Positions 4,727-53,076 of a stretch of 64,000 nucleotides of DNA are shown here, piece by piece. This DNA is from Rhizaria sp. SCN 62-66 (lineage: Eukaryota): contig MEDY01000117.1 in the NCBI GenBank assembly GCA_001724265.1, positions 1 through 64,000 of the forward strand, in the 5' to 3' direction. Each line of letters begins with the position of its first letter. The first letter of the stretch is position 1. The notes under the pieces were generated by a model that made no database searches, was not told the DNA's origin, and was given only the letters and a program-made list of their open reading frames with translations. Made by a program: the position numbers and the translations under genes.

Positions 4727-4757
<31 letters not shown>

Positions 4758-6032
4758 ACCGGAGAGCTGATCCACTTCCTCTGACTGCGCAAGCTGCGCC
4801 TGTGCGCGGCTGTGCGGCGAGTGCGTGTGCGCGCGCGTGAGCGAGCGGTCGACGAGGCGCAGCGCGGCGACGTGCTCCGCGGCGGCGTCCAGGAAGCGCG
4901 GGTCCGACAGCGCTAGCGAGGCGAGGTGGCCGCCCGCCGAGTGGCCCGACAGCACAATGCGCGACGTGTCCACCGCGCTGCGCAGCGCAGAGCCGCTGCT
5001 ACCGCTCCTCGCAGCACTGCTGTTGTCGTAGTTGAGAGCCTGCGCGCCGGGGAAGATGTCTGCGCCAAACTCCCAGACCCAGGCGAGCGCGTCGGAGCAG
5101 TCCGTCACGTGCGCGGGGTGCTTGATCCCGCCCGTGCACACGCGCATCACAGCGAAGCTCACAGCCACGAACGCGAACGTGCCGAGCAGGAACCACCACA
5201 CGGGTGGCCAGCCGCCGCCGGCGAGGAGCTGGATCACAGCCACGGGCGGGTACGTGAGGCAGAAGAGCACCAGCGCGCGCAGCGGGGCCTGCGGCAGCGG
5301 CGGGTCGGAGAGCCGGTACGACACGGCCACGGCCACGCAGCCGGCGGCGGCAGCGGCGCGGCAGGCCGCGGGCGCGCCGCGCCACTCGTTGGCGTGCGTG
5401 CCGCGCTGCCAGGAGCCGCCGTGGATGTGCACGAACAGCGGGCGCGGACGCACGGGCGCGGGAGAGCCGCGCATCACGCCGCCGTAGCCGAGGTCGGAGA
5501 CGCGGTACGAAGCGTCCATGGCGTCGTAGGCAACCGCGGCGGCGGTGTTGGCGACAGGGACTGGCGCTTGAGTGGCGGCGGGGTTGGGCGTGCACTGCCA
5601 GTCGCCAAGGGGCAGCGGCGCAAACAGTGCAGCAGGGTCATCAAGCAGCGCGCGCACTTCATCGGCGACAGCGTCGGCACTGTCTCCGGTACGGTCGAAG
5701 CAGCTGCCCGCGAGCGAGGGCGGGATATAGACGTCGATGACACGCTTACGCCGCTGGGTGATCCAGTCAGCGAAGTTGCGGCGAAAGCTCGCGATGGTGC
5801 CGTCACCGGAAAACTTGTACCACGCGCGGCGGCCGCAAATGGGGGAGCGTTGCTAGACGACGCGGCGCTGGAAGACTTCGTCGCATTGAGCGATATACTC
5901 AGTCTCGTACAGCACATGGGCTCGCTGCGGCACAAAGGGTTCGTCGATAGAGATGTTGCGGAGTACGCGAATTTGCTCGCGGTGGATCGGTGAGCTTGCC
6001 AAAAGCTCGGCCGTAATAGGGGACTCGGCCAT
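3436..6032 (-). CDS. Alpha/beta-hydrolase (HSL-like / isoprenylcysteine methylesterase-like esterase); exons 6032-4386 and 4269-3436; in-frame TAG at 5853-5855
   Basis: Motifs VIDVYIP, HIHGGSW, VAVSYRL, HPAHVTD, GHSAGG (nucleophile elbow), SGVY, ASP, PPHLLL..D and a C-terminal SH, plus two hydrophobic segments. Phase-0 intron 4270-4385 (GTATGT...CAG). ATG at 6030-6032 is in frame with ORF 4236..5657 across a single TAG. Stop is TGA. Confidence 0.85.
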
Positions 6033-7632
6033 CAAAGGCAGAGAGGGCGGGATTAAAGCCGCGCTATGCAGGAGAGATGATATAACGGCACAAAAAGAGG
6101 GTTCGAGGAGGAAGCTCTGTGAGCGTGCTCTCGGAGGATAATTCCATGTATAGAACGATGATTATGGAGTGTGCGTTTTGTATACAGGGTTTTCACATAA
6201 TTGAAAAAATAGATAATCTAAATCCGACCCGTACTGCCGACGTCTCTTGCCACATCGAGTTTGCTTTTTGTGCGGCTGGCAGGCGTGTTCGTCTGCAGCT
6301 CGGTGATTCAGAATCAATTTGTGGTGGAAATCATATTTAATAGCGTTTCACCCGCATACATGCAGTCTATACTGCATCAACGTGATAAAAGCACATCTAA
6401 AGCTACGTTCAAGCAGATAATCCTATTTTTGTGACACACAAGCGTGCATTTTCAGCACGAGATATCGATACAAAGGCAGGGAACATATGATGGAGCCTCA
6501 GTGTACATGTTGTTTAGAGACACATTAATGAGAGCAACGTGAATTTTTGCGCTAGAAAGCCGCTTAGTAACACAATAAAAATGCACCGACTTGTGATCGA
6601 TGCATTTTACACCAATATACGGGGTTTTACCGCGAGATTCAGGTTCTTTTCAAGTTGCACTCTCTGAAGACTCCTGCATCAAAGCGGTGACTCCAGTGAA
6701 GTGCATATTGTGTTCACAACATATAAACTTCAGACATGCTATCAAAGCAGTGTTTGAGTTTACTATATTTAAGATTCAGACGTGCTGGCCTCTGTTGTGT
6801 CATCGAGAATGCAAGTATATACTAGTAAACGCGTATCTACCAAGGCGATTTCGCTGCTACAAGCTGAAAATGAGATTTATAAGAAAGATGACCGGTTTTA
6901 TTTGGCATAGCAGGCTGCCATACATTTTAAATTCCAGTAAAAAAACTATGCGTTGCAGTCTCAAAGATATAGTCCTCTGTTAACCTTGATCAACACGCGT
7001 TCTACCGTTAATACATGGCATCTGTTACTGGCAGCGCGATACTAAATCAGGGATCACATCAGGTGGTGCTTGCCATTCAGAATAAAATTTGTATATACTA
7101 TATTAAAAATCAGCATTCATTACAAGCAATACAGTTGCATTAAAACATACAAATGAAGACTCTACGCAGCTGATGATGGTTTCGTGCTCTCAGCATGACT
7201 CTTCGCACGGTCGCCCAGCCACCTACCCCCCACGCGACCACCACTCAATGACAACCCAAGCTGAGCGTGTGGGGGCAATTTAGCGCGATCGATCACACAT
7301 GGTTTGAATGTGATTAAGAACTGCCAGTCACTCTCTATAATTTAAGAGCCGGTTTTCTACACCCACATTTAATAAGATTCTATTTCATGTCTCGTGAGCG
7401 CTAAGGTCACACTTTTCTTCTGGCTGCATACCTCCCAAAGCAATCGTCTTTCCGAATTGCATCTTTTTGCGTCTACCTCTTCTGCCTGACCTCGTATGGA
7501 GATTTAATCAACATGTCATGTAAATTCAGACTGCTAAATACCACGCGATTGCGGTTGACAATCTACAACACCACACGCTTCACCTTCACACCAACTTTTT
7601 CCTTAATCATTGTTCCTCCCTCCAAACCTCAG

Positions 7633-13400: not shown

Positions 13401-14696
13401 GTGCAGCGTGGCCGCAGCCGCGTCGCGCGCGCCCAGGGCGAAGCGGACGGACGGCACGTGCGCGCGCGGCGGGGCTGCGCTGTACCAGCCGGGCCCGGGG
13501 CCGCCCGCGCCCGCAGCCGAGCCCGCCGCGCCGCCCGCCAGTGCGGCCGCGGCGGAGGCCGAGCCGGGGACGGGGGCGGGCGCGCCGGCGCCGGTGACCT
13601 GCGCCCCCCCGAAACGCGGCGCGCGCGGGAAGGTGTAGGTCGCCGCGGCGGGCTCGGTAGCGTCGCGCGCGGGCGGCCGCAGCACCAGCGCGGCGTCGGC
13701 GGCACGCGCCGTGGCGGAGCGCGAAAGCGGGGCTGACAGCGCGGCGCCCGAGTCCGCCGCGGGCGCCGCGGACGCTGAGGGAGGGGCGAGCACCGTGGCG
13801 GCGGCAGTCCCGGGCACGCCCAGCGCGGACACGCGCGGGAGCGCGGACTGGCGCGCGGAGGGCACGTGCGGGGCTGTGGCGGCGTCGAGCGCGGCAGCCG
13901 AGGCGCGCGGCATGTAGGGGGCGGGCACGCAGTCGGCGAGCGGCTTGGCGGGCGCCGGACGCGACACGCCGCGGGCAGTGCGGGGCATTGGCGCGCTCGT
14001 GAGCGGCGCGCCGAACGAGCCGGGGCCCGGGCCCGCGCGCGGCGGGAACAAGCTGCGCGTTGAGGCTGAGGGCGTCTCCGCGGCGGCCGCTGCGGCGGCG
14101 GAGACCGAGGCGGGGGCGGAGGAGCGCGACGGGGAGTGGCGGCGCGCGGTGCGGGCGCTCAGCGGGCCAGTCGCAGACATGCCCGAGGCGGAGGATGAAG
14201 ACGAAGATGAAAACAGCTGCGCGGAGGAGGCGGAAAAAGACGCGGCGTCGGGCGCGGCGGGGCCGTAGCGCGTCTCGGTGTAGGTGCGGACGAGCGCCTT
14301 ATGCTCTCCCGTGCCGGGCCATGCGACCAGGAAACGGGGTGGTACCAGCGCGTCGCCGCCGCTGCCTGCGCCGCCGGGACCGAACTCACTCGCCAGCGCG
14401 GCGTCAGCAAGCCGACGCGCGGTCATACCTGTGGCTGTGTCTGCGGCCGTGGAGAGCGGCGCGGCGCGGCGTGGGTTGAGTCGCAGTGAGAGGTCTTGAC
14501 GTGGGAGTGCAAGGGTGGCCGAGCCACCGGATGCGACGGTGGCCACGTCGCGGCGTTTCTCGGCACGAGCGAGGTTCTAGCCGCGGGAGCGGAGGACGTC
14601 AGCTGTAGCGTCGGCTTTGAGGTCGTGCATCCAGCCATTGCTCCAAGCGTCGTCTCTGGGGCCTGCTCGGGGGGCGCCCGGAGCGCGACGACTCAT
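10416..14696 (-). CDS. Large low-complexity protein with PGPGxY (SHIPPO/STPG-like) motifs, coiled-coil and IQ motifs; possibly flagellum-associated; in-frame TAG at 14577-14579
   Basis: GPGPGWY, LGPGSYY and GPGPGSF motifs; IQ-like AARTIQNAIRGWLLR and AAVRIQRWWREARAR. The ORF track starts at a GTG. An ATG at 14694-14696, near the edge of the AT-rich spacer, is in frame across one TAG. Stop is TAA. Confidence 0.7.
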
Positions 14697-18100: not shown

Positions 18101-19157
18101 ACGTCGTGCTCACGCTCAAGGCGCTGGGCATCAACGACATGCTCGGCTTCGACTTCATGGACCCGCCGCCCGCCAACACGATGGTGACGGCGCTGCATTC
18201 GCTCTTCGTGCTGGGCGCGCTCGACGGCGACGGGCTGCTCACGCGCCTTGGCCGCAAGATGGCCGAGTTCCCGCTCGAGCCGCAGTTGTCCAAGATCCTC
18301 ATCTCCAGCGTCGACCTCGAGTGCGCGGAGGAGGTGCTCACCGTCGTCGCGATGCTCTCGGTCGACGGCGTGTTCCACCGCCCCAAGGACAAGCAGGCGC
18401 AGGCCGACGCGCGCAGGGCCAAGTTCTTTCAGCCCGAGGGCGACCACCTCACGCTGCTCGCCGTCTACGACTCGTGGCAGCGCGCCAACATGTCCGCCGC
18501 CTGGTGCCAGGTACGTATGAACGCACAATATTTATTAACAATATTTAATGACACAATCTTCCTATCAAACTCTAGATTCAACGCTCAATTCGATTATTTC
18601 TATTTCACGATATATTCAAACTGGTTTTGTTGAATACCTCTCATATATGGCTCTATACTCTTTACTTTATGTATCTCTATATTGTTCAGGACAACTTCGT
18701 CATCGCGCGCGGTCTGCGGTCCGCACAGGACGTGCGCAAGCAGCTGGTGTCGATGTTGGACCGCTACCGCCTGCCGGTGGTGTCCTGCGGGCGCCACGTG
18801 CACCGCGTGTGCCGCGCGATCTGCTCTGGGTACTTCATGCACGCCGCCAAGAAAGACCCGCAGGAAGGGTACAAGACGCTGGTCGAGTCGCAGCCGGTGT
18901 ACGTGCACCCATCGAGCGCGCTGTACTCGAAGCAGCCCGAGTGGCTGATCTACCACAAACTCATGCTGACGACCAAGGAGTACATCCACGAGTGCCTGGT
19001 CGTCGACCCCAAGTGGCTCGTGGAGCTGGCGCCGGACTTCTTCCGCAAGTGCGACGAGACGCAGCTCAGTCGCCGCAAGAAGCGCGAGCGGCTCGAGCCG
19101 CTCTTCGACAAGTTCCACGCACCCAACGAGTGGCGCCTCAGTCGCCGCAAGGGCTAA
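15166..19157 (+). CDS. DHX8: DEAH-box pre-mRNA splicing helicase PRP22/DHX8; exons 15166-18510 and 18690-19157
   Basis: S1 domain (RVWVKVL...[15 protein letters not shown]), [49 protein letters not shown], and C-terminus [20 protein letters not shown]. Intron 18511-18689 is GTACGT...CAG. Stop is TAA. Confidence 0.97.
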
Positions 19158-19510: not shown

Positions 19511-21480
19511 TCATTGAGCCGCCACGTCAGCGAAGCAGAAGGTGAACGCGTCGACCCACATGCCCGACGAACCAGCCACGGCGACCAGTCCGCGTCCGTT
19601 GCCGCCCTCGGCGACGGCGGTGGGCGCGGAGCCCTGCTGCACGGGCGTGCCCAGCACAGGCGAGCTGTGGCCCTGCGCGGTGTGGAACCGCAGCGCGCGC
19701 ACGCCCACATCGTCGGCCCATACGTCGACGCGCGTGATCAGGTCGTCGGGCTGTAGAGAGAAGCTCTCCGTGCGGTCACCCTGCTCGGCGCCGTTGGACG
19801 AGACGCCGCTGTAGCCGAAGGCGAGGTCGAGCCCCTGCACCGTGGCAGGGTCTCCGTTGCGCAGCTTCACGGTCACGGCCGTGGGGAAGCCCCAGACGGT
19901 GTAGCACTCGTCGCGCGCAAAGCGCGAGCCGCCCGTGCCGCCGAAGGGCCCGCTCTCCACGGGCGCGCGGTCCGCCACGGGCTGCAGCGCGCCCGACGCC
20001 GTGCGCCGCGCGGGGGGGCCGCCCGCGGTGCCGGGCTGGGCGGCGGCGGCGGCGGCGGCGCCGTACGGGGCAGCACCGGCGGCGGAGGCAGGGGGGTAGC
20101 CGGGGTAGGGCTGCTGCTGGGGCGGGTAGCCGCCGGGCGGAGGGTAGTAGCCGGGCTGGGGCGGGTAGTAGGTGCCGGGGGGTCCGGGAGGGGCGCCGCA
20201 CGCGCCGGGGGGCGGGGGACCGCCATAGTGGCCGGGCGGGGGCGGGTGGCCGTAGTGACCGGGCGGGGGCGGGTGGCCGTAGGGCCCAGGCGGGCCGTAG
20301 GGGCCGGGGGGGCCGCTGGGGGGCCCATAGGGCGCGGGGGCGCCGTACGGCCCGGGGGGCCCGGGGGGCCCGGGGGGGCCATGAGGCGCGCCGTAGGGGG
20401 AATACGGCGCCGCGTACTGCGGGGGCTCCGCCGGCGCCTGCTGTTGCTGCTGCTGCTGGGGCACGATGAGCACGGTGGTGGTGGCGCCGCCAGTGCCCGC
20501 AGTGACGACGGGGACGGCGACGCCCTGGCTCGGCGCCGCAGCCGCCGCGGCGCGGTGGGCGGCGCCGGGGTAGCCGCCGGCAGACTGGCTCTTGACAATC
20601 GTGCTGCCAGCAGCCGGGGCCGGCGCGGCGGCAGGAGCGGCGGCGGCGGAGGGCCCGGAGAAGGTCTGCGACTGCGGGAGCGGCTGCTGCGGCGGCAGCT
20701 GGCCGGGCGCGGGGGAGAACATGTGCGGCGGCCCGTTGGCGGCGGCCTGGCGCAGCTTGTCGGAGAAGTTGAGCTTCACGATAAGCGTGCCACTGGGCGC
20801 GTTGCGCGAGTTGTACAGCGCAATCTGCTGCGGGATGCCGTGCGTCTGCGGGAGACTGTTGATGAGCGGGACGCTGCCGCGGCCGAGCACAGTGTCGGAG
20901 CCGATCATGACCTTGTCGCACACCTCGAAGGTGAGGTAGGGCTGCGCGCCGTCCAGTGTGAAGGTGAAGCGCGCGTTCAGGTCGAAGTGCGGGCCGTGGC
21001 CGGAGCTGGCCGCTGCGAGAGAGGAACACAAGGGCAGGAGGTGACAGATCAGGCGTGAGTGCGGACAAGCAGGAGGCGACGATGCGAAAGTGCGATTTAT
21101 GGTGAAAGCAACGAGGGGGGCGGGTCAGGTGGTCTTTGGAGGCAGAAATGAAAGACTATGGTGATAGAAGCTTGAGAGTGTTAATGCGGATGGGAGACGT
21201 ACGTTTAGAGGGGACGTTAGCAAGACCACAAAGGACCTTGACGTAGGGCTTGCGCGAGAAAGTGGACTTGCCATCGTTAAACGTGACACCAGTGACCTCA
21301 GCACTCAGGAAGCCCTAAAGAACACAAAGCAAGCGCACATCGTAGTCATGTGAAAAAAATACCGACAATTACAGAAATAATACGTTCGGAAGCAGCGTGC
21401 GGATTAGAGTGGTGCTGGATAAACCGTGTTGGACGTACGACAAGGTTTGCCGCATTCGGCCGGGGAACTTGGCCCGGCAT
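19511..21480 (-). CDS. C2 domain + Pro/Gly/Tyr-rich linker + jacalin-like lectin domain protein (paralog A); exons 21480-21439, 21314-21203, 21012-19511
   Basis: The spliced N-terminus GFLSAEVTGV...KPYVKV...FTFTLDGAQPYLTFEVCDK..GSDTVLGRGSVPL is C2-like. The C-terminus GPFGGTGG...ESFSLQPDDLITRVDV...ALRFHT...GLVAVAGSSGMWVDAF is jacalin-like. Both introns are GTACGT...AG and phase-consistent. Stop is TGA. Confidence 0.8.
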
Positions 21481-33409: not shown

Positions 33410-34114
33410 GCGAGTCGGGTGACTGTGTGAACCGATGAGTGTGAACCGATAAGTGGTCAGGCAAGAGCAGGCTGGGCCAATACCCAATTTCCATAAACTG
33501 ATGAGCTTACTTGTATTGATGGAGACGAATACAATCATTTTGATTTCGATTCACAATGAAGAAACAAGTTGTATTGTAGATTTTGCAATGTTTAGTCGTG
33601 AAATTTGAAATAGTATAACTGTGTGCACTGTACTATCCAACCACACATTAACAATGATTCACTGAGGGAATTGAAGCTTAACGTTAATATTAATTGCGTG
33701 TCGGTGTCAGGACGTAATCACGATGTTGCAACCGAGTTCGAAGGAACGAACATACAGACTAGCAACTTAAAGCTAGCATGTCTCACGAAGTGGAATGCAA
33801 CAATATTACTTTGTACGAAGTGCTTTTGGTTGGCTGTGAAAGTGCATTTTGATCAGATTGTGAGACGCGAAAAAAGGACCACACATGCGGCAAGCAGTGT
33901 CAGTGTAGTTGCGCACGTTGTATGAGTTTGACGGAGCCACTCGTGATATTTTTAGGTCGAGAGCCTCTCACTGACTTCACACTTCAGACAAACTAACTTA
34001 CTGTTCTCCACTATACAGCCGCAGCAATTCTTAACTCGGTCAATCTCGCGTTTTGGTCACCATCGCAGTGCTACATCTCGCCCCCGCTGTCGTTTCGTCG
34101 TCGCATGGCGCGAC

Positions 34115-36491
34115 TCAGAGGTCCAGGGAGAGCGAGTCCGGCAGCGTGGGCGTGTTGGACGAGCTGTTGGGCCGCGGCGCGAGCTTGAGCTGGATGCGGC
34201 CGGCGCTGTGGCCCGCCGCACTGCTGCCCGCCGCGGCGCCGTGGCCGTGGCCATGGTGGCCGTGGGCTGCCTCGAGCCCGATGCTGCCCGACGACGCCGG
34301 GCGGGTCGAGACGGAGCCGCCGGAGCCCGAGGCCGAGGTAGGCAGCGGACTGCGGCCCGAGGCGGAGCCCACGTTGACGTTGACGCCGACGCCGACGCCG
34401 CGCACAGAAAGCCCGCTCGCGGCCGCTGCGGAGGCCGAGGCGGACGGACTGGTCGCAGGACCGTTGCCGGTGGCGTTCTTGGTGCTGGCGAGGCGGAAGC
34501 GCGCGCCCGCGGCGGAGCCGGTCGGAGAGCCCAGCATCGAGCCGCTGGAGCTGGACGCCACCGACGACGCAGACACGCCGCGCACCATCGCCGGCGCCGC
34601 GGCCGCAGCGTTGGCATGGGCGTTGCCGGCGGCGGTGACGGGGCTGACTGCGCTCGTGTCGAGCGCGAGGTCGAGCTCGTGCTGCATCTGGTGCTGCATG
34701 TGCAGCTGCTGCTGCTGGTGCTGCTGGCTGCGGCCGTGCTTGGCGCGCGTCGGCGACGGAATGCGCAGGTCGAGCCCGCCGTCGGAGTCGCTGGCGTCCT
34801 CGCCCGCGCCGCCGCCGCCGCCGCCGCCACCGCCGCCCAGCCCATGGCCGGGTCCAGCGTTGCGCGCGGCCGCGTTGGACGGGAAGGCGCCGCTGTGGGG
34901 CCGCGAGAGCGAGCCGTGGGCCGGCGTGACGTCGCTGACGTCGCCGCAGACGCCCACGCTGAGCCCGTTGCCGTTGCCAGCGCCGGAGAGAGTCAGCGAA
35001 CGCATGACACGCGTGCCGCCCACAGTGACCCCAGCGCCACACGCGCTCGCGGCGGCCTGTGCGGCGGTAGCGGAGGCGAGGGCCGCGGCTGGCACCCAGG
35101 GCGAGGCCCCGGCCAGCGGCGTCGCCGTCGCGGTGCCCGGCACCGTCACCGAGGGCCGCGACGAGGCGTGGAACAGCGTCCGCGGCCCCAGCGTCGGCGT
35201 CGCACTCGTGCTGCTAGTCCCGCAGCCGTTCCCACCGGCGGAGTAGCCGTTGGCGGCCGCAGCGGCGCACACGGCGGCGGTGGTCGTGGCGTCAGCGAAC
35301 AGAGCAGCGGCGGCGGGCGCGACGGGGCAGGGCGAGAAGACGGCCGTGGACGTGCCCAACGACTCGGCGGGCAGCGGGTTGATGATGGCCAGCTCGGGCG
35401 CGTACGTCGCGGCGTTGAACTCGGCGTGTAGGTCGACGAACACGCCCGCGGCCTCGAAGTCCTGGAGCTGGCGCACAAACGACAGGTTGGGCTGCGCGAT
35501 GGCGCGGCGCGACTGGACCAGGTCCAGCGCAGTCTTGATCGACACGCCCTGCACGGCCGCAATGTACGCCACGACGATGGTCGCGGACCGGGAGCGCCCG
35601 GCCGCGCAGTGGACCAGCGCCGCGCCGCCGCGCTGCAGACTGCCACCGCCGGCGCCGTGACCGCTGCCCGCGGGGCCGATGGAGAAGGACGAACACAGCG
35701 ACGGCGCGGGCAGCGCGGCGCTGCCGGCCGTGGACGGGCGCTCGCCCGCGCCGACGACAGTGAGGTTGGTGATAGTGTTGTTGCTTGCGGGCGAGAGCAT
35801 GCCGCGGCCCTGAGCAGCGGCAGCAGCAGAGGCGGAGGTAGCGCCGTTCTGACCGAGGCCAGAGTCAAAGGGGCGGGAGACGAGCGAGACCTCGGATACC
35901 GCGGCGGCGGCCGAGCTGGGGCGCGAGTCAGGCTCCCCCGCCGTGACCACCCGGGAGCCGTCCGCGGCCGCGAGGCCCGCGAGCGCCGCCGAGCCGACCG
36001 AGGCGGCCGAGTGAGCGTGTGGCAGCCTTCCGTGGCCGTGGCCGGCGCTGTTGCCCACATTCACGGTGAGCGTGCTCGCAGCGGCGGGGTTCAGGTCGGT
36101 GTTGGGCGTGGCCGTGGCGCTCGCACTGGAGCCCGACGACGGCGCCGGCGACACCGCCGCAGCAGCGGCCACGGCGGCGGCAGCAGCGGCGGCAGCGGCA
36201 CTGGACGGGTAGGCGGGCGTCATGCGTGTGTAGTGAATCAGGCGCAGACAGTGCAGAACTTCCTCCAGCAGCACTTTCTGCCCCGTCGAGTCGTCCCAGT
36301 TAAGGCAGACGTACGACACGCCCTGGTCCTCAAGGAACTTGACGTGCGCTGAGTACTGCGGCGTCACGTGCAGCCCCTGCGCGCAGTTGATCACGCACCG
36401 CACGCGCTGCTGCGTCAGCAGCTGGTGGTGCTGTGCCGACTTGAACCCGCCCAGCAGCAGTCCGCCGGGCACCACGGTCACCTGGCCCGTT

Positions 36492-36524
<33 letters not shown>

Positions 36525-39500
36525 GCCGTGGCGGCCACGGAGCCCGGCCCCGGCTGCGGCAGCGGCGTGGCGGTGCCGTCAGCGGCCACGACCACCGATC
36601 CTGAGCCCGGGCGTGTGCCGCGGCCGGCGCCGCCCGAACCGGAGCCGGAGCCGGTGCCGGAGGACGAGGACGAGGACGAGACCGAGGTGATGGACACGCC
36701 CGTCGATGGCCGTGTAGAGGGAAAGAACGCCGGCGGCGGCGACCCGTGTGCAGAGCTCGAGCCCGCGGCGTCGCCGTCGCCCATGCTGTTGCCCCCCGCA
36801 GCCGCGGCAGCAGCGGCGGCGGCGACAGCGGCGGCGGAGGACGCGGCCGAGGCGAGCAGCGCGGCGTTGGCCATGTTAAGCGAGGCGCGGCGCGCAACGG
36901 AGCTGCTCAATGACGCCGACATCTCGCGCAGCTGCGACGTCGCGGACGCCGCGCCGGTCGTCGGCGGCACCGGCGACCCGCCGTTCTGACCACCGGTGGC
37001 GTGATGTGGGCCCGGGCCCGGTGTAGTGGAGTGTGCGGCGTAGCGCGCGGCGGGCGGCGGCGAGGCTGAGGGCGAGGTGAAGCCGGACCCGCCGTTGCCG
37101 CGGACGGCAGCACGGGAGACCGACAGTCCCGGCCCCATGTTGAGGCTGGGGCCTGGACCAGGGGAGCCGATTAGCTGAGGGGCGCCGTAAAAGTCGTTTT
37201 GCGGCGATGGCGGAGACGTGTCGGGCATCAGCAGCATGTACGGGGGGCCGTGGCCGTGCAGGCCGGAGCCAGCGCCGCCGCTGATGCTGTAGCTGATGCC
37301 GTAGCCCGGGCTGCGGTACTGCGCCCCGGGCCCAGAGCCTGCGCCGGCGCCGGCGGCGGCCCCGCCCGCGGCGGTGAGGTTGTTCGCAGTGGTGCTGGAG
37401 AGCAGCGAGGCGTTGGTCTCGTCGCAGTCGATGAGCGAGGACACGGCGACCTCGACGTCGACGTCGCCCGGCAGCGCCTCCGAGGGGCCCGGGCCGCTGG
37501 CCAGCGCGCTGGTGAACGCGGGCAGCCCGCCCGCCGAGGCCGCAGCGGCGCCGGCAATGGTGCCGGCGGCCGGGAGCGCGCCGCCGCTGGCCGAGGCGCC
37601 GCCCGCGCCCGCGCCAGTGGAGGCGACGGCGCTGTGGCTGGGCGCAGTCAGCGCCGTGCTGCCGGGGTGACCGTGGGCGGCGGAGTGACCGTGGGCGGCG
37701 AGCGGGTCGACGGCCCCGGCGGCGAAGGAGCCCAGGTCCCTGGGCAGGAGCGGCGGTGACGGCGAAGGCGCAAGCGAGATGTTGGAGAGGCTGCTGCGGC
37801 GGTGGCCGGCGCGCGAGTAGTTGCTCGACACGGACCGCCGCGACGGGGCCGGGGAGGTCGACACGCCCGGCTGCAGCTGGTCCGCGGACACATTGTTGTT
37901 GGTGGTGGCTGTGGCAGGGTCTGGCACATGAGGGCTAGGACTGCCCACGGTCCCCAGTAAGCTCACGCGGTCGGCGTTGTCGAGGCCGGCGCCGGAGAGC
38001 ATGGGGGCCGAGACAGAGGCGCACATCGGGGGACCGAAAAAACCCGACCGACCCCTGCCCGCGCCCCCGCCGCCGGCGCCGAAGCCGCCGCCGCCTGCGG
38101 ACGGGGTGGGAGGCACCGGTCCGCTGCCGCTGGCGGCCACGTCGCCGGGGGTGGCGCCGAAGTGGAAGCCACCGGGGCCCTTACCGCGGGTCGACGGCGG
38201 CGGCCTCGGCGCGCCCCGCCCCCCGCCGCCGCCGCCATTGGCGCGGGCGCCGGCGCCGGGGCGGAAAGAGGCGGCATGGCGCATGTGAGACGGGGAGCCG
38301 ATAGTGTCGGTCTCGTCTTCGTCCTCGGGGCCGCCGCACATGTCGTCGTCGTCATCGTCGTCGCCGTTGTCGTCGTCAATGTCGTTGTCGTCGCCTGAGG
38401 TGTGGAGCATATCCCCGTCGTCTCCGTCGTCGTCCGCGTCTCCGTCCATCAGCGACGCGAACTTGCTGCTGCCCGGGCCCGTTGCGCCCCCGCCGGCGCC
38501 GCCGCCGTTGGAGCCACTGGAGCCGCTGGAGCCGCCGCGGGGCCGGCCTATGTTGCCGGCGTCCAGGGACAGCCCGGCGGCGGCGGCCAAGGAGGCGGAG
38601 ACGCCACGCGCGCCGAGTAGGCGCGGGTCGATCTGCATGGGGAACGTGTCATCGTCGTCGTCGTCGTCGTCCCCCGCGCCCACACCGGTGTGGCGGGCGC
38701 GGCGGGAGCCATAGGCCGAGGCCGACGCGGCGGTAGCGGCGGCGGCGGCGGCAGCGTGTGAGGCCGCGGCGGCGGCGGAGGGCCCGTAGGGGTTCAGCAG
38801 CAGCGACGGCCGCGGGGGCAGCCCCGCGAGCACGGCCGCGGCGGCGTCGGAGGCGGCCGAGGCGGAGGCCGTGGCCATGACGCTGCGGCGCGCGCCACCC
38901 TGGACGACCGAGTCATCCTGCGCGGGGCCCGTGGCCGAGGCGACGACGGACTGCACGGCCGCGGCAGGGAAGCCCGGCTCACCCGGGAACAGGATCGACG
39001 AGGGCAGCTGCGGGTACGCGTGCTGCAGCGCGCGCAGCATGGCGTTGCGCGCCGTGGGGCGGCAGGCGGCGAAGCGGGTGTACTCGGTGACGCGGAAACG
39101 TTCGCTCGTGTCGAGGTCGCGCTTCCGGCTGTGCGCCTTGAACGTGGGGCGCAGAGTCTACGCGAAAAAAGAGTGCAGGGGGCAAATACAAAGTAAAATA
39201 CAACGGGATGTGGAAACGGTATTGTTGTGAGTGGCGACGACAGGTAGATATCCCGGTTTGCAGGAATGAGAGGAGCGAAACGGCGGGCGCGTGCGGGGAG
39301 GGAACGTACCTCGCCAGTGAACTCAACGACGCGCAACACAGGGTCTTTCTCGTTGCGGAGCATCTCGGCCGAGAGCTCTTGCAGGCGCACGCGGAGCTCT
39401 TCGACGGTGGCCACGTGGAGGCGCGGGTCGGGGTCCTGCTGCGCGAGCCGGAGCGCGGACTGCTCGTCATCGGCGGGCGTCCAGGCGTCTGCGTTCGGGA

Positions 39501-39818
39501 CGGCGGCGGGGCGGGAAAACAAAACAAAACGGGATGAGACAGGGCGTGAAAGGTGCAAGTTAAGGGGAGGCACGCGCAAACGTGGTGTCGAACGGAGTGA
39601 TAAAGGAACGGACCGTTTGAAGTGAGGAGAGTGTTGATGGTCATGCCCTTCATCTTTTCGAACAGGGACGAGGTGGGGGCGTCGGCTTGAGGGGCGCGCT
39701 CCGTGACCGACGGAGGTCGCACAATGCTGGAAGGGGAGTCAAGGTTGGTCGACAAACCCAGAGGTGCGAGCAGGGAGGGCCCACCTCGCGCCTCTGGGCG
39801 GACAGAGTCGTGTTGCAT
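34115..39818 (-). CDS. Large dual-specificity protein phosphatase; exons 39818-39614, 39488-39310, 39157-34115
   Basis: GLLLGG...VINCA...NWDD and catalytic VHCAAGRSRSATIVVAY...PNLSFVRQL. The two phase-consistent introns (GTCCGT...CAG and GTACGT...TAG) extend ORF 34115..39040 to an ATG at 39816-39818. Stop is TGA. The 5' exons are less certain than the catalytic exon. Confidence 0.85.
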
Positions 39819-40070
39819 TGTTCGCGTGCTTGCAAACAACAAATCCTCTGCCAAGGCCGTTAGTGATCGATAGCTTCCCAAGAACGCGAGTTCTAGACAC
39901 AATTTAAAAAGGCAAGAAAGAAACGTGAGTGGAAAAATTAATTTCCAAATTAGCGCTCGAAATATCGCCGCCGACCGTCTCTTGAGACCAAATTGTGTCC
40001 CCCACCCGTTCACAGGCCAATGTGATCCGTGTGGCTCGCGCCGTAGGACTGGTGGACTTTGACCAGCCGA

Positions 40071-40087
40071 TTGGTTGGTGGTGGCAG
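40071..40087 (-). promoter_or_regulatory. Candidate upstream element (copy 1 of a 17-mer; overlaps a CCAAT on the minus strand)
   Basis: TTGGTTGGTGGTGGCAG on the + strand is identical to 42528-42544. It lies about 250 bp upstream of the phosphatase ATG. Confidence 0.4.
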
Positions 40088-40478
40088 ACTACTCGGGCTT
40101 CAAGGTTTTGATAACTGTAGAATAGTAAGTTGTTATTTAAGGATATCAGACCTGGAAAATAGTATTTTAAGCTTGTATTTTATATAAACAGCGATATTAT
40201 TGTTCGTGTCCAGTGTCTTGGATGCGTACTGCTCCGAAACTGCGCTCCGCTCAACTCGGTTCCACGCCGATCTCTCTCGCTCGCGCTCAGGCGCTCACTG
40301 CGTTCATTTCAACTTCACAGCAGCTCCCCAGTTAGCACTGACACCATCTCATGGCCCTCTATGCATTATATTCATATTTAGGCGTGCTCTCAAGAGAAGA
40401 AGAAGACACGCGACGGTGACAGCGAGAGTAGAGTTCGTTACATCACTCAACGATGACTAATAAAGCTCGACTCATCAC

Positions 40479-42439
40479 TCAAAACTCCTCCTGGTCCTCG
40501 ACGTCATCGCCCCTGTGTTGCTGCTGCGCTTCATCGTGCACTTCGTCCTCGTGGTAATAGTTCTCCTCCTCATCGACCACGTGTCCGGTGCCATCGCCGT
40601 CGCCGAGCTCGGCCGCGTGCTGGTCGATGGTGCCTGCGCCAACCACGGCCGCCTCGGCCTCGTCCGCGACCTCCTCGCTCTCGGCGCCAACGGCAACACC
40701 ATGCCCGGCCTCGGCCTCAGCCTCGGGTTCGGCCTCAGCCTCGGGTTCGGCCTCAGCCTCAGGTTCGGCCTCATGGGCTGCGGAGGCCTTGGAGTCGTGC
40801 CCACCGGCACTCGCACCTGCGCTGGCGCCTGCGCCAGCATCGGCGGCCGCGGCGGCTGCGGCGGCGTCGGCAAGCGACATCCCGCCCATCTCGTCATCGG
40901 CGTCGCCGCCAAGGTGAGCAGACTCAGCGCTGCCCGCACCGTGGGCGTCCTCAGCGTGTGCGTTGTCGGCGTTCGCGTCTGTGTCGGGGTCCGGGACGTA
41001 GAAGTCGTCACCTTCGTCAGTCTTGTAGAGCAGATGCAGGATCTAGCTTAGGATCGGGTCCGTGCTCCCGGCGGCCTCGGCCTCCTAGGTACGTGTCGGT
41101 CGGAGACAAGCGGCAAGACAACGGTCAGTCGATCGAAGGAGGGGCAGCAGTGAGAATGAGAGGTGAGTTGTTACTGGAATAAAACGTCCTTAATGACATT
41201 TTAGAGAAAATTAGTTACAAAAATATCGACAGTATGCGAGCTTGAATCTATCTTGATGTTCCAAGGCATCCGAATTGACGTGTTTCACTCTTAGTCGTAC
41301 CTGGCAAAGAATCTCGACGTCACGAAGCTTGTCGTAGTACGCCCGCGCCTCGCGCTCCACAACCGGAATCGCGCTCTTGAGCTCCGCCAGTCGGGTCTGC
41401 GCCTTCGCAGCCTCTGTACTGTTCGCAGCAGCGCCAGCCGCGCCAGCGGCGGCGCGGCCGGCAGCAGAGCCGGCGGGGCGGCGTGCGGCGGCGGCGGGCG
41501 AGCCCCCCGCGGCGGCAGCCCCACCCGCGGCGGCGCCCGGGGCGCGTGCGCGTGCGGCGGCGGCAGTGGCGCTGGGGGCGCGGGCAGCGGCAGCGGACCC
41601 CGAGGAGGCAGGCGCGGCGCTGCCAGCGCGGGGAGCACCGGTGCTTGCCCCGGCGGCTGCGGGGAGCGCCTTGACAGTAATCTTGGCGTCCTTGCGGCGC
41701 TGCACGGCGTCGTAGGGGCCCTGGTAGTGCGCGTCGAAGTAGGCCTTGATCCACTGGAGGAACTCGAGGTTGTCCTGGAAGCGCGCCTTGACGAGCTTGG
41801 CGACGTCGATGTGCTTGTTCACGCCCTCAGCAGTGAAGACGGACTGCAGAATCTTGTAATTCGGCAGAAACTCGTGCTCAACTGTACATGTGATGAGTAG
41901 CAAAAGCATATAAAGCGATGTTCGTGATGCATGTGAGCAAGTCAAAGCGGTGTTCGGGGAAAAGGATCTGGGCCGAAGCGAGTCACGAAGGGAGACATTG
42001 CAAGGAGAGGAACGTACGCTTGGCGTTAAAGTTCACTTTGCCGAGAGGGACGCGGCCAGGGAAAACGCTGTCCATAATCTGGCAGTACAAGGCACCTACG
42101 TTATTCGAAAGGGCACAGTGACAAAGTGGGTAAAAGCGTGATGAGCACGCGAATGCATTTTGAGAGAAAACACATACATCTCGCCACAGCCAAAGTTGGT
42201 ACATATTAAACTCGGATATAATATGCAAAACAAGTGGAAAAACTACACAGGCATTGATTCAAAATGAACATATGCATTAATAATTCGCCCGGGATGAAGA
42301 TGTTTGGGGATATCATGTTGCCCCTTCGGGACATAGACGTACCGCTTGCAGCTTGCTCCACGTGGGTGTACCCAAGGTGAAACATTTCGTTGACCCACTC
42401 AAGAAGAGCCTTTTTACCCAAATTCGCGTGCGCAGACAT
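40479..42439 (-). CDS. EB1: Microtubule end-binding protein EB1/MAPRE; exons 42439-42343, 42095-42018, 41881-41301, 41084-40479; in-frame TAG at 41043-41045
   Basis: CH domain LLEWVN...[15 protein letters not shown]...KVNFNAKLEHEF..NYKILQ...[14 protein letters not shown] domain [45 protein letters not shown], and an acidic tail ending EEF. All three introns are GTACG...AG with consistent phases. Stop is TGA. Confidence 0.95.
40709..40772 (-). repeat. 18-nt coding tandem repeat (EAEPEA, about 3 copies) in the EB1 acidic tail
   Basis: ggttcggcctcagcctc is repeated on the + strand. Confidence 0.8.
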
Positions 42440-42527
42440 GTCTGTCGGATTCTCACGACTAGAACTCGTTCGCTATTTGAACCCTCTTCCCTCGACTTCA
42501 CCCAGCCACCTCCAAGCGAGCCGTTGG

Positions 42528-42544
42528 TTGGTTGGTGGTGGCAG
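42528..42544 (-). promoter_or_regulatory. Candidate upstream element (copy 2 of the 17-mer)
   Basis: Identical to 40071-40087. It lies about 90 bp upstream of the EB1 ATG, in the spacer between EB1 and the divergent RRM gene. Confidence 0.4.
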
Positions 42545-43276
42545 GGGTTCGCGAAAATGACCTCTCCTGCCGCCTACGAGCGGACGACGCAAAGCCAAAG
42601 GGGCTGAGAGCGCAGAAAACGGTCGTGCAATTCTCTGCTGCTCAGCGAAAATACCCACAAACAAGGTTTTAGACAGATGTTGGGACTAAATACTTCGTTC
42701 TCTATGCACATCGCTATTCACGATGGATTTGCTTCGCTAGCTTCAATTTTGACATCCCGTTCGCTCTCTTTCGTGCTCAACCCGAACGCCTTAAACGGAC
42801 GCGTCCACTACGTCTATCGGGACTAGTGTGTGCGCGTGAGAACTGCGGACATTTGACTTTGGCAAGGTGCTGCCCTCGCAGTGTTTTATTGCTGCATGTG
42901 ACTTGCCAAACCGACCTTTCTCGTCCCCTAAACCCCCGTCCATCCAACTCACTTCAACATTTCATTCGGCCATTCTCGTGACTCTCCCGCTCTCCACTTG
43001 ATGTTCTTGCTTCTCCCAGCACAGGCGTTCGCCGCGTTGAGGCCCAGCCGCCCCACCGCTAAGCAAAATCTTTTTCTCCGAAGTACCACCCCGGGTCTCA
43101 GTCGCGCACCTCCGCACCGCCGCTCCGCGACCCAGGTCTTCGTTTCGTGTCCCCTAGACAACAACTACACAAAGTAAGAGTATCATAGAGAAAGCGCAAC
43201 ACTCAGCACAACAACAGGTCTTGACAACAAGCACTTGCACCGCCGCTCCTCCACCTTCCTCTCTGCGCTCACACAG

Positions 43277-43348
43277 ATGTACAACAACAATGTCGGCGCC
43301 AACCTCGGCAACGGCGTCAGCAACTTGCCCATGATGTCGTCGATGCAA

Positions 43349-43393
<45 letters not shown>

Positions 43394-45396
43394 CAACATC
43401 AACAATAGCAACTGTCGCAGCCGATGCCGCAGTCGATGCAGATTCCGCAGCAGCACATGCTCAACAACATGTACAATCAAAACTCGCCGCACGCTAACGC
43501 AAATCATAGCAACAACAACAACTCTGCCCTCGCCGCCGCCAACGCCGCCGCGGCCAACGCCGCCGCGGCCGCCGCCGCTGTCGCTAGCCTTACCCTCGGC
43601 GGCCACCACAATCATAACAACGGGCTCGGCCTCAGCCAGAGCCCTGGTCCCGGCAATGGTCCCAACGGCCTCAACACCGGCTTCGCCTACCCCAACTCTG
43701 CTGCCCACGGTCACCACGCGCACGGCCACAGCCACACCCACTCTGGCCTCACCCAGGGACACGGGCTCCCGCACGCCCACAGCCATAACCAGGGCGGCTT
43801 CGGGGCGGATCCGATGGCGCTGGCGAGCATGAACCTCATGGGCTCCTACAACGCCGCCGGCGTCGGCCGCGTGTCTCCCGGCCCCGTCGGCGCACTCTCG
43901 CCCGCCAACGCCAGCGCCGGCGGCGCGGGCGGGCTGGGGGGCAGCACGATCGACCACTACGCGCTCGCGGCTGCGGTCACGGCCGCTAGCGCCAACGCCG
44001 CTGCCGCCAACGCCGGCTTCGGCTACGCCAACGCCAGCTCACTGGCAGCGGCGGCAGCAGCGATGGCAACGGTCACGGCCGCGGCCTCGAGCAACCACAA
44101 CAGCATCATCAGCGGGCCTAGCATCGGCAACAACATCAACGGGCCTCGTGGTGCTGCTAGCGGACGCGGCAACAACAACAGTAATATCGGCAACGTTGGC
44201 CGCTTGTCCCCGGGCCCAATTCCGCAGCCCTCTGGCTCCCAGCAGGCCCTCCAGTCGCCGCAGCTGCAGCAGCAGCAGCAGTCGCAGACTCAGCAGCAGA
44301 TCGATCCCCAGTCCATTTTTGTGCGCAACATGCCGCCCGACGTGAACGAGACCATGATCCGGAACTTTTTCATGTCGGAAGGCCTCCCTGTGCAGAGCGT
44401 TAAGATCCTCACCGAGGACATCAACGGCAAGGACCGCATCAAGGGCGCGTACGTCAAGTTCACCAACGCCGAGGACGCGGTCAGGGCGCTGCGTCTCGAC
44501 GGCACGCCGATGCGGCCATCGGAGTACAACATGAAGATCGTGGCTAAGTACATGATCAACTCTGGCCGCCGCAACAACCCCACGGGCGCGGCGGCCCCCG
44601 GCGGCGGGAACGCCAGCGGCGGTGGCAAGCAGGGCGGCGGCACCGGTCGCCGTAACTCGCCTGGTCCTCACAACGCCGGCCCCAATAACAACAACAGCAG
44701 CAACAACAACAACGGCGACCTCAGCAGCCACTACAGCGGTTCGCCGGGCCCGTACGGCCTCGGCCAGCAGTCCCCCGGTCCCTACACCGGCAGCGTCGGC
44801 CACGGCGTGTCCCCTGGGCCTTACAGCGCCGCCGTCAGCACCGGCTCGCCGGGCCCGCTCGCCGCCGGCGGCGGCGCCGCGGTGTCCAACACGTCCTCGC
44901 TGTCTCCCGGCCCGTCCGGTCAGACTCACGGCCACGGCCACGGCGGGCTCGGGCGCTCGATCACCGCCGCGGCGCCCGCCGCGGCGTCGGGAATGCGACC
45001 GCAGCGCGTGCCGCCAATGCCGCAGATGCAGACGCGCACGCCCTCGCCCGGCCCCCAGGCCGCGGGGGCCTGGAGTGGGGCAAGCGTGCAGCCGCCGCCG
45101 CAGCAGCAGTCGCTGAGCGAGCTGCAGCGCCAGGTCGACTTGTTGCAGCAGCACCAACAGCATCAACAACAGCAGCAGCTGCAGTTACAGCACCAGCTGA
45201 GTCGCGGCAGCGGCAGTGGCGTCGGCAACAACAACGGCGTCACCATGCCGACGCGGCTGGCGTCGTCGCTGTTGATGCCGGAGAACTCTCTCTCTGCGCA
45301 GCAGCAGCAGCAGCAACAGAACGCTCAGCAGCAGTACCAGCAGCAGCAACAGCAGCAGCAACAACAGATGCAGCAGCAGATGCAGCAGCACATGCA

Positions 45397-45433
<37 letters not shown>

Positions 45434-46937
45434 CAACAGCAGCAGCAGCAGCAGCGCAACGCGATGCGTGGCAGCGGCACTGACATCCCGGGCCTCGTGC
45501 AACAAGCACTCACTTCATCAAACTCGCTGAATGCGTCTTCGCTGCCGACGCAGAGCGCGCCGGACTACCCGAACAACAACATGAGCAACCTGCTCCATAT
45601 CAACACCAGCGGCAACAACGGCCTCGGCAACGGCAATCTCAACGACGGCAGCGTCCCTGGTGGCCTGGGCCTCGGCCTCTCGATGGGGCTCGCGATGGGC
45701 GGCGTCACTTCTGGCGGCGGCCTCAACGACTTCTCGACGTTTGACTCGGCACTGGCGAGCCCCACCGCGGCCGCGTCCACGAACGGCCTCAACGGCAAGC
45801 CCGGCAATGGCGGGATGCCGCACCGCAGTTCGCTGTCTTCCACGCTCGCCCTGGGTCACAACAGTCACAACGCCGCACACGGCAGCCACCTGAGTGCGCC
45901 GTACTCGCTCACGGGACCCGGCAGCAACAGCTACGACAGCCGCCTGCACTCGAGCGCCAGCGCCGCCGCGCCGGGCAGCTCCGCGGGCTCTGGCACTGGC
46001 ACGGGCACGGCGGCCTCGTCGGTGCACGCGTCGCCGCTCTCGTCGCCCTCGGCCGTTGCGATGGCGTCCTCTGCCGCCGCCATGGCTGCCGCTGCGGCCG
46101 CCGCCAGCGCTGGGTTCAACAGCGGCCAGCCCGGCGCCACCACGGCGGCCACCGCAGGGCTCACCGTGCTGGAGGACGACAACGAGGGGCGGCTTAACTT
46201 TGATGTCCCTGCCCGGAGTCCCTCGCTGTCGTTCTCGCACAACGCGCACGGCCAGGGCCACTCTGGCGCGCACGGCATGATGGGGCACCATATCGGCCAC
46301 GGCGTCGGCCTTAATGGCTACGGCAGCGGCGCCGGCCTGGGCGGCGCGGGCGTCGCGCCGAGCGACAGCGACGCCAACTGGAACGGGTTTCAGAGCGACT
46401 GGACTGGTAACAACAACAGCAACAACAACAACAGCAGTGCCAATACTAGCACGAGCCACAACAGCTCGACCGCGGGCATCTCGACCAACGTCGCCACGGC
46501 TGCCGCGCTCATCTCCCAGCAGCACGGCGGGCTCGGCGGCTCGACCGCGGCCATGTCCGAGCACGGCGGCGCCGCGCTAAGCTCGATGCACAGCTCCGAG
46601 GCCGACGCGCCGAACCCGGCCCTGCGCGCCGCCGCAGCCGCGCGCCTGTCGGCCACGGGCGTGTCTGGGCTGGGCGCGCTCAACGCCGGCCTGTCGCCGT
46701 CGCCGCCGTCGCCCGCGTCATCGCTGGGCTCAGCCAGCGCGCTGCAGCACCAGCAGCACTTGCAGCAGCAGCAGCAGATGGCCGTCGTCGGGCACAAGGG
46801 CCGGCTGCAGGACCTGCCTTCGGCGCGCAACGCCAGCGGCAACTACGGCGCCACGTTCCAGCAGATGCAGCAGCTGCACCAGCAGCAGCAACAGCAACTT
46901 CAGCAGCAGCAGTTCCAGCAGCAGCAACAGTTCCAAT

Positions 46938-46968
<31 letters not shown>

Positions 46969-48061
46969 GCAGCAGCAGCAGTCGTGGCAGTTCCAGTCGT
47001 CGCCCTACGGCAACGGCGGCTACCAATGCGAGATCCTCTCCCCGCGGCCCGTGAACCCGGCGTTCGACCGCCTGCTGCTGGATCTCAACGTGCCTGACAC
47101 GCTCGAAGACGGCGTGCGGCGCGCGGCCGACTGGGTCACCGAGAACGCGAGCGCGCCGACCGATGACGGTGTGGTGCCGGCGCAACCAGTGATCAGGGTG
47201 CTTAACGCCGTCGAGGCGGGCGTCAAGGCCACGGCTGTGCAGGCGCAGCAGGCGCAGCTGGAGATGCAGGAGCAGCGCGAGTTGGTGCAGCAGCAGGAGC
47301 AGACGCAGAAGATGCACACGGTCGAGATTCTGCTTTTGCTGCGCGAGATCATCCTGCTGTCTGACCCTGCGCGTGCGCGCGGTGTGTACAGCATCCTGCG
47401 CTCGAGCGCGGTCGAAACGCTCAACAGTGAGCCAAATTACCGGTTCACGAACCGCGACGAAGAAGTCGCGCTGATGCTCAACGACGGCGCGAACCAGCAG
47501 TCGCAGCTGCAGCAGCTGCTGCAAGAGCAAGCCCGCCAGGAAGAGCATATCCGCAAACAGCTCATGAAACTCGAAGAGGACCGACAAAACCGGGCGCAAA
47601 CGGGCGCAGACGGCAGCTCCCCTGCCCTGCACACCCACGGCGGCCACGCGGGCAGCCACCCGATGTTCGACGTCGACGGCATGCTCAACCGCAGCACGGA
47701 TCCCCGCGGCAGCGGTAGCGGCAGCAGCACTGTAACGGGGCTGCTCGACACCAACTCCGGCTCTGGCTCCGCGTCGGCTTCCGTTGTTGACGGGCTGACG
47801 GTGTCTCTGGCGGCGCGCGCGCTCAGCAACCACAGCAGCGTCCCCGCGGCCACCACGGGCGGCCCGGCCACGTCGCCCACCAACGCCTCGACCAGCATGA
47901 GCAGCAACGGCGCCAACGCGCTGGGCGCCGCGGCGGGCACTGAGCTCGACAGCAACCGCGGCAGCGGCAGCATCCCTGCGCGCGCCGGCGTCGGGCTCAG
48001 CGCCTCTCCGGGGCCCTTCGGCTCGCTCATGGCCGACATGTGGTCGAAAGACGCACACTAA
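43277..48061 (+). CDS. Poly-Q/N low-complexity RRM protein of 1594 aa when the two in-frame TAGs (43406-43408 and 46937-46939) are read as sense
   Basis: ATG 43277, ORF 43424..46939 and ORF 47051..48061 share one frame and are separated only by TAGs inside CAG/CAA runs. RRM at about 44309-44545 (SIFVRNMP...KGAYVKFTNAEDAVRALRLDG). Stop is TAA, followed by AT-rich sequence. Confidence 0.85.
45299..45453 (+). repeat. CAG/CAA poly-glutamine tract (further tracts at about 43346-43411 and 46860-46981)
   Basis: Directly visible trinucleotide runs in frame with the RRM gene. Confidence 0.95.
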
Positions 48062-52004: not shown

Positions 52005-52378
52005 ACGCAAAGAAGACGAAGCGTCATGAGTATGACAAGTAAGTCACACGTGACATGCTGTGCCCGCTATGAAGATAAGTTGCAAGTTCGTGGAGATGTT
52101 GCACTTAATAGTGGGATTGCGCATCATAGGGCCGCTGGCCTTGCTTGAGAGAAGCGTTTATAATACATAACAGATTGAATTGCGACTGTATATGCTGGTC
52201 TATCTTACTTTTATGACTAGACAGGATTCTTCTGATAGACGGTCAGCACGCAGCGTGACCACAAGAAGGGTAACTATCATTTGGCATATCTTTATGCAAC
52301 ATCCGTTACTCGTGACACGGAACGAGCTCACAAAGGAAACCATTGCTTTTGTTACTTTCCGATAATTATAGTTTTCCA

Positions 52379-53076
52379 ATGTCTTCTGGGGCTGAGAACA
52401 TCGATGTTCAAGAGAGCACCACAAGTGACTTGACAATCGACGACTCCGTTAAGGTACGTTCTCCCTTCATGCACTACACTAACCCCCGCTGATCACAAGG
52501 CTGCCTCTCACCGGTACACACATTTATGTAATACTGTAATCACTTGCCCTTGCGCAGCGCACGGTTCAAAAAATCCCTCTGTGTAGCATCCGCGCGGGCC
52601 CGCTGGACGACGCGACCGAGTGGACAGCCCGCTTGCGGCAGGAGCTCATCGCTCTCATCGCGTACGTGCAGATGAACAAGGCCAACGACAACGACTGGTT
52701 CTTTATTGAGTCTAACCCTGACGGCACGAAGTGGTCCGGCAAGTGCTGGTTCGTGCACAAACACGTCAAGTACACGTTCAAGATGCAGTTCGAGATTCCC
52801 GTGACGTACCCGGCGTCGCCGTTCGAGGTCGTGCTGCCCGAGCTGGAGGGCAAGACCGTCAAGATGTACCGCGGGGGAAAGATCTGCCTCTCGCTGCACT
52901 TCAAGCCGCTGTGGGCGCGTAACGTGCCGCGCTTCGGCATCGCGCACACGCTCGCCATGGGGCTGGGGCCCTGGCTGGCCGCGGAGGTGCCTTTCATGGT
53001 CGACAAGGGACTCATCACCGAGGAGGTCTTCGGTAGCGGCGGCAAGGGACAATAGCAACAGAACGACGCGGTTTGA
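52379..53076 (+). CDS. UFC1: Ufm1-conjugating enzyme; exons 52379-52453 and 52558-53076 (ends at 53055 if the TAG is a stop)
   Basis: IPL....AGP....W..RL..E...[55 protein letters not shown]. Intron 52454-52557 is GTACGT...CAG. The tail reads CAA TAG CAA CAG AAC GAC GCG GTT TGA. Confidence 0.96.

Follow-up and report, generated by a model that had tools for sequence, protein, structure and literature searches.

Does UAG still end translation in the protist represented by contig MEDY01000117.1 (assembly GCA_001724265.1), or has it been captured by an amino acid? The window analysed here, positions 1 to 64,000 of that contig, is eukaryotic nuclear DNA with a coding GC content at third codon positions of ~0.8-0.9 and AT-richer spacers. 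A first-pass annotation had proposed that UAG is a sense codon, probably for glutamine (Gln), and that UAA and UGA remain stops. This proposal is borne out in three genes by homology, continuity of the coding signal and metagenome contigs, and TAG is found at none of 15 gene ends. It is very probable that this organism translates UAG. With a little less confidence, we consider it likely that UAG is a sense codon of the nuclear code, most likely for Gln, and that UAA and UGA are its only terminators.

In-frame TAG codons of the EB1, esterase and RRM genes

Six TAG triplets had been reported in frame within genes. All six are present at their positions and on their strands, and three of them stand between Gln codons as described (CAA TAG CAA at 43406, CAA TAG CAG at 46937 and CAA TAG CAA at 53053). 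Their location inside genes is firm for the sites at 5853, 41043 and 46937, probable at 43406, ambiguous at 53053 and not upheld at 14577. Coding potential was measured with a codon-usage score trained on 8 genes devoid of TAG sites (11,582 training codons), and a scan of both strands of the window counted 2,743 stop triplets. Scanning with 40 codons discriminated poorly and longer windows were used instead. In the whole-window scan the TAG at 46937 is the sole stop triplet within 100 coding-like codons on each side, and no TAA or TGA on either strand is embedded in this way. Two TAGs that passed the looser 40-codon scan, at 35244 (plus strand) and 25152 (minus strand), are antisense-frame artefacts; another, in the frame 18552-19157, is noncoding and lies within a DHX8 intron, and one near 39158 is located in AT-rich sequence upstream of the DSP gene.

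The firm site of the EB1 gene (41043-41045, minus strand) is codon 14 of its last exon (40479-41084), within the motif DP-x-L-x-[TAG]-I-x-x-L-L-Y-x-T-D-E-G. The exon matches the homolog block DP...L-x-x-I-Q-x-I-L-Y-S-T-E-E-G-F and continues for 187 codons between the TAG and the ...EEF end, where ...DQEEF is followed by TGA; many homologs end in ...ETF. Upstream of it are a 216-nt intron delimited by sequence and frame (41085-41300, GTACGA...CCTAG) and an exon (41301-41879) that finishes in ...EILCQ; to judge from homologs and from Pfam, which matches positions 2-22 of the 41 in its EB1 profile, this exon runs from the last part of the CH domain through the linker into the C-terminal motif. 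Pfam gives nothing significant for the 41-residue start of the last EB1 exon, for the C-terminal 373 residues of the RRM protein described below or for the last esterase exon.

Contig mapping covered 29500-43100, an interval with EB1 and RPL10 and none of the other five TAG sites; the poly-Gln RRM gene, which has long CAG/GCA repeats, was excluded from it. Contigs from three runs of two studies, X4 (40876-41375), X5 (40731-41083) and X7 (40997-41374), carry the EB1 TAG intact with 0 other letters; the triplet occurs in DNA-like contigs as well as in those of cDNA libraries. Those of X4 and X7 cross the 216-nt intron unspliced. The X5 contig (record 23), which comes from a cDNA library, follows 40731-41083 without difference and stops 1 base from the predicted acceptor, 38 nt upstream of the TAG. 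The same run holds spliced RNA, because its RPL10 contig (depth 411) is devoid of the 131-nt RPL10 intron (CT..AC, hence GT..AG on the minus strand). The borders of this intron (30546-30676, minus strand) are judged GT..AG from the contig ends alone.

Under a standard code these TAGs would be assembly errors, products of nonsense mutation in genes undergoing decay, or triplets that are edited or spliced out of the RNA. Every TAG could resemble a YAG acceptor, CAG-to-TAG should be the most frequent nonsense change (CAG makes up 357 of the 11,582 training codons), and one X7 contig has a 1-base deletion at 41025, which would suit this explanation. The EB1 data speak against it: the TAG is intact in contigs of three runs from two studies, and the X5 piece covers a further 38 nt beyond the codon on its upstream side, as far as the first acceptor. 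If splicing instead used the TAG itself as acceptor, ...CTAAGCTAG with the exon resuming at ATC, the frame would be kept, but the 13 codons corresponding to the DP-x-L segment of homologs would be lost, leaving no loop ahead of the I-L-Y helix.

The esterase gene (3436-6032, minus strand) codes for an alpha/beta-hydrolase (Pfam BD-FAE / Abhydrolase_3) and ends in TGA at 3436-3438. Its firm TAG, at 5853-5855, is codon 60 from the ATG at 6030-6032 and belongs to a first exon (~4386-6032) whose limit is placed where similarity to a homologous protein, P0276, ends. Searched against 1.84 billion representative proteins, the esterase proves to be split at the TAG in the public protein set, into P0277 (59 residues) and P0275 (473 residues). 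Residues 14-399 of P0276 (518 residues) align with residues 21-406 of the query as a single BLASTP stretch of 40% identity, unbroken across the TAG; the codon-usage score in the same frame is +12.6 before the TAG and +83 after it. The esterase has no close homolog other than P0276, to which phmmer gives 47% and BLASTP 40% identity; this protein also has a long poly-Gln insert and may come from a related organism.

Two further TAGs occur in a Gln-rich gene with an RRM domain (Pfam RRM_1; 43277-48061, plus strand) that ends in TAA. The site at 46937-46939 is firm by codon usage: the frame that holds the TAG has a score of +217 for the 399 codons that precede it and of +143 for the 373 that follow, with no other stop, whereas values in the other frames lie between -262 and -391. 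The site at 43406-43408, 43 codons past the first ATG, has a score of +3.4 before and +186 after, and it is probable that it lies in coding sequence; a short upstream reading frame is the alternative.

With these two genes, the case for a standard code weakens further. The P0276 alignment spans both flanks of the esterase TAG and the coding signal is undiminished past 46937. Three broken genes in a set of ~17, none of them frameshifted, would be implausible. We regard the standard code as a very unlikely explanation of the in-frame TAGs, and retain translation of UAG.

Several other features of the contigs at EB1 and RPL10 were recorded. The 1-base gap at 41025, 18 nt downstream of the EB1 TAG, belongs to an unspliced contig of depth 5.1 from X7, a poly-A RNA run, and may stem from misassembly or from a variant allele. 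The acidic tail of EB1 is encoded in part by an 18-bp tandem repeat at 40706-40773, specifying EAEPEA units; one X4 contig has exactly one 18-nt unit less, at 40711, which suggests that the copy number varies between populations. Two EB1 introns, at 41085-41300 and 41880-42018 (minus strand), start with GTACG (GTACGA and GTACGT, respectively). In the RPL10 exon at 30069-30507, contigs of X5 and X3 match the window and those of X7 and X4 differ from it at many scattered positions; the X7 and X4 plants probably harbour several related strains or species.

Gene ends and the UFC1 and IQ-protein sites

Among the 15 gene ends of the window, eight are TAA (9785, 10416, 19155, 22445, 29108, 29955, 48059 and 53365), seven are TGA (3436, 19511, 26644, 33407, 34115, 40479 and 52002) and none is TAG. 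Several of the TAA and TGA ends fall 3-25 residues past the end of a Pfam domain or at the conserved ...EEF end of EB1. UAA and UGA are still stops. If TAG were 20% of stops, its absence from 15 ends would have a probability of 0.035, and this small sample is supportive but not strong evidence against termination at TAG. The earlier statement that gene models contain no internal TAA or TGA is reproduced in 19 coding segments with 14,610 codons, in which 0 were found, although this is partly true by construction as the segments are bounded by TAA or TGA.

The TAG of the UFC1 gene (53053-53055, plus strand) lies past the UFC1 domain and 6 codons ahead of a TGA, and whether it is a stop or a sense codon is ambiguous. 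The Pfam domain ends 12 residues ahead of the TAG, and the tails of homologs vary in length. The closest relative, P0002, is 73% identical to UFC1 and has in common with it an extra residue in ...AGPGDD...; it ends in ...STDAV, and the tail obtained by reading through the TAG ends in ...NDAV. The shared DAV tail gives a hint that the UFC1 TAG is read through.

This site brings in the possibility that UAG has a dual meaning or is a leaky stop, which a near-cognate tRNA-Gln would read through inside genes while termination takes place elsewhere, for example at the end of UFC1. Context-dependent codes, such as the Condylostoma type, are described in other protists. Such a code would account for a TAG right after a domain with TGA 6 codons on, the only such case in the window, and for the great rarity of in-frame TAG (5-6 per 14,610 codons). 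It is opposed by the lack of any TAG end among the 15 genes, by the position of the EB1 C-terminal motif and tail, both needed, after the TAG, and by the DAV end that the UFC1 read-through tail shares with P0002. A dual meaning appears unlikely, and a plain sense reading is preferred.

The TAG attributed to the IQ protein (14577-14579, minus strand) lies upstream of the coding signal of that gene and carries no weight as evidence. The codon-usage score is -5.1 before it and -3.7 after it, and rises to +75.7 only past the next in-frame ATG, at 14426. Because the coding signal begins only after this ATG, the triplet is probably part of the 5' leader or of a short upstream frame.

The amino acid probably read at UAG

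The context of the TAGs favours Gln as the best reading of UAG on few sites. Counted in the 19 coding segments, residues with Gln on both sides are 93 of 538 Gln, 7 of 1217 Leu, 5 of 231 Met and 7 of 341 His, to be compared with 3 of the 6 TAGs. With all six sites the context likelihood of Gln is at least 236 times that of every other residue, and 278-fold when the IQ site is removed. In EB1, 15 of 27 non-self matches, chosen by rank and length before the column was inspected, were aligned at the TAG; they have Q in six, D, N and P in two each, E, K and M in one each and L in none, Q being the commonest. The earlier preference for Gln over Leu is thus maintained by the Gln-flanked TAGs (3 of 6) and by the EB1 column (Q in 6 of 15, L in 0).

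UAG could be a sense codon for another residue, such as Leu, which it specifies in exLh, a rhizarian, and in certain phyllopharyngean ciliates. The closest named relatives of two proteins of the window are rhizarians, and one rhizarian reads UAG as Leu (PMC5304391). The likelihood ratio of Gln to Leu is ~12,800-fold with six sites, driven by Gln flanks on both sides at 3 of 6 TAGs versus 7 of 1217 Leu residues, and with the three firm sites alone it puts Gln only 19-fold ahead. The EB1 column is polar and none of its 15 homologs has L. Another amino acid is distinctly unlikely and we privilege Gln.

A number of observations weigh against translation of UAG as Gln. The sample is very small, with 3 firm TAG sites in 14,610 codons of one window, and on these three sites alone Gln is ~5-fold over the next residue. 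That only TAG is found in frame says little on its own, because most nonsense mutations in a CAG-rich genome yield TAG. The EB1 column, the sole usable one, is variable and includes near-duplicates among its 15 homologs, and the esterase TAG is opposite a P of P0276 in a variable stretch, so this site shows translation and not the amino acid. In the X5 EB1 contig a further 192 letters map elsewhere, its splice being deduced from where the piece stops, and the read-mapping tool rates X5 as 'probably DNA'. In-frame ATGs follow the TAG at 43406 within 5-20 codons, and UFC1 translation could terminate at its TAG. As to the decoding machinery, ARAGORN and Rfam give no credible tRNA in the window, tRNA(CUA) included, and Pfam scans show no eRF1 in it.

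The mechanism that we envisage would combine a tRNA with a CUA anticodon, charged with Gln, that decodes UAG and an eRF1 that has ceased to recognise this codon. UAG would have been freed first, and new TAGs would then have arisen from CAG by a C-to-T change. In the training set, Gln is encoded by CAG in 357 codons and by CAA in 26, and a single C-to-T change converts CAG to TAG. TAG amounts to ~1% of the Gln codons of the window (5 TAG versus 538 CAG/CAA) and is found mostly inside CAG-rich tracts; both its share and its location fit such an origin after the codon was freed.

Source organism and comparison with known UAG codes

Pfam matches in the window include, besides the alpha/beta-hydrolase, EB1, RRM protein and UFC1, an EHD-type dynamin-like protein, a DHX8/Prp22-type DEAH helicase, two jacalin-domain proteins, RPL10, an amidase, a dual-specificity phosphatase, a WD40 protein and a giant RING protein. 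A reading frame for a small membrane protein, labelled Romo1/Mgr2-like by the first-pass annotation, is also present. The two jacalin-domain proteins (19511-21124, minus strand, and 27335-29110, plus strand) have long Pro/Gly/Tyr/Gln-rich repeats, and one of them also has a C2 domain. The giant RING frame (53365-63999, minus strand) exceeds 3,544 codons, is open at the window edge, has its RING in the last 60 residues and contains no in-frame TAG. Antisense to it, ARAGORN calls an 88-nt tRNA-Glu(CTC) at 62781-62868 (plus strand), where Rfam reports no tRNA at its gathering score; the call is probably false and due to GC-rich sequence.

Portions of the window recur in metagenome runs from wastewater, bioreactors and activated sludge, in 7 studies dated 2015-2025. 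The closest named matches of UFC1 and DHX8 are the chlorarachniophytes Lotharella globosa and Chlorarachnion reptans. A quick tree built on DHX8 alone, with 27 rows (26 picked by name and rank from 120 listed matches), groups the window with 4 metagenome-only sequences (SH-aLRT 96); this cluster loosely joins chlorarachniophytes and a sequence labelled 'Ploeotia' (SH-aLRT 94, branching not resolved). These protein comparisons give a weak hint of an affinity to Rhizaria, and as the tree is of one gene with weak support the organism is not firmly placed. In the same tree, P0178 and P0211 tightly pair a protein labelled as the fern Adiantum with one of the fungus Exobasidium, and P0170 and P0203 pair 'Nonionella' with the amphipod Hirondellea, which are likely mislabelled or contaminant public records.

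Relatives were also searched for in contigs. Scanning metagenome contigs with the EB1 exon gave no match. With DHX8, at least 80 loci were obtained, the best among the matches listed being 71% identical. Across the aligned DHX8 core an in-frame TAG is present in none of the 80 loci listed, and a TAA is found at an alignment gap in 3 of 80. A closer DHX8 relative, P0126, is 83% identical, comes from a contig of 10,721 bp and is outside the 80 loci listed. The scan of genome contigs returned two small matches unrelated to the organism. One of them, L081, is a 1.5-kb contig of an 'Ideonella' bacterial metagenome-assembled genome; it codes for a STE12-like protein of fungal type and for part of a DEAH helicase and is, because of this coding content, eukaryotic contamination of a bacterial bin.

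As the first-pass annotation stated, nuclear reassignment of UAG alone is known from few lineages, and its examples (Iotanema with Gln, a rhizarian with Leu, and ciliates) agree with PMC5304391 and PMC11687900. The fornicate Iotanema spirale uses NCBI table 15, in which UAG is Gln; UAA and UGA are stops and UAG ends no gene (PMC5304391). The same table is assigned to the phyllopharyngean ciliates Hartmannula sinica and Trochilia petrani, where UAG is unused as a stop (PMC11687900); its name, 'Blepharisma', is a misnomer (PMC5304391, PMC11687900). In exLh, a rhizarian of the Sainouroidea, and in three TARA ciliates, UAG stands for Leu (PMC5304391, PMC11687900). The retrieved sections of PMC12021597 and PMC13746701 do not mention a nuclear code change.

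With Iotanema the window has in common a code with UAG as the sole reassigned stop, most likely read as Gln here, and with termination at UAA and UGA. Iotanema is an anaerobic gut fornicate, whereas the window has very GC-rich exons, introns of 131-216 nt and the Romo1/Mgr2-like frame. In-frame TAG, at ~5 per 14,610 codons, is far rarer in the window than in Iotanema (204 in 126 genes), and TGA ends are about as common as TAA ends, whereas UAA dominates in Iotanema; both comparisons are rough. Hartmannula sinica and Trochilia petrani resemble the window through table 15, which was assigned to them from in-frame UAG at Gln positions. They use UAA as almost the only stop, in rough contrast to TGA at 7 of 15 gene ends here, and differ from the window in its 106-kb parent contig, GC-rich genes and long spliceosomal introns, three features unlike ciliates.

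With exLh the window shares a UAG-only reassignment outside ciliates and the retention of UAA and UGA as stops, and the two may fall within one supergroup should the weak rhizarian affinity be real. The difference is that UAG is Leu in exLh, a value against which the context of the TAGs and the EB1 column speak here. Codes in which UAA and UAG are both Gln (table 6) occur in many ciliates, hexamitin diplomonads, some ulvophytes and Amoeboaphelidium. They have in common with the window a stop codon read as Gln, presumably by a suppressor derived from tRNA-Gln, but UAA is reassigned too, and in the window TAA ends 8 of 15 genes. Reassignment of UAG alone is also known in some oligohymenophorean ciliates.

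On so weak a placement of the organism, an origin of the UAG change independent of these lineages is no more than plausible. More specifically, we put forward as a tentative idea, with slightly less than even confidence, a protist lineage known only from metagenomes, possibly cercozoan, that has recently and independently captured UAG for Gln outside ciliates and metamonads. In the literature searched, no GC-rich wastewater protist is described as having a UAG=Gln code, and the organism is probably a new lineage with an already known code variant. One practical consequence is that gene callers using the standard code cut its genes at TAG, as seen in P0277 and P0275, P0001 and P0247 of public sets, so that its proteins are truncated in databases. 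Nuclear code changes outside ciliates are few, and those that separate UAG from UAA fewer still. An added, probably independent case in a GC-rich, intron-bearing wastewater protist would help to show how UAG comes to be freed and then captured again. The very low usage of TAG may mark an early stage of this recapture; if the tentative scenario is true, the window would be a snapshot of early stop-codon capture in a GC-rich genome.

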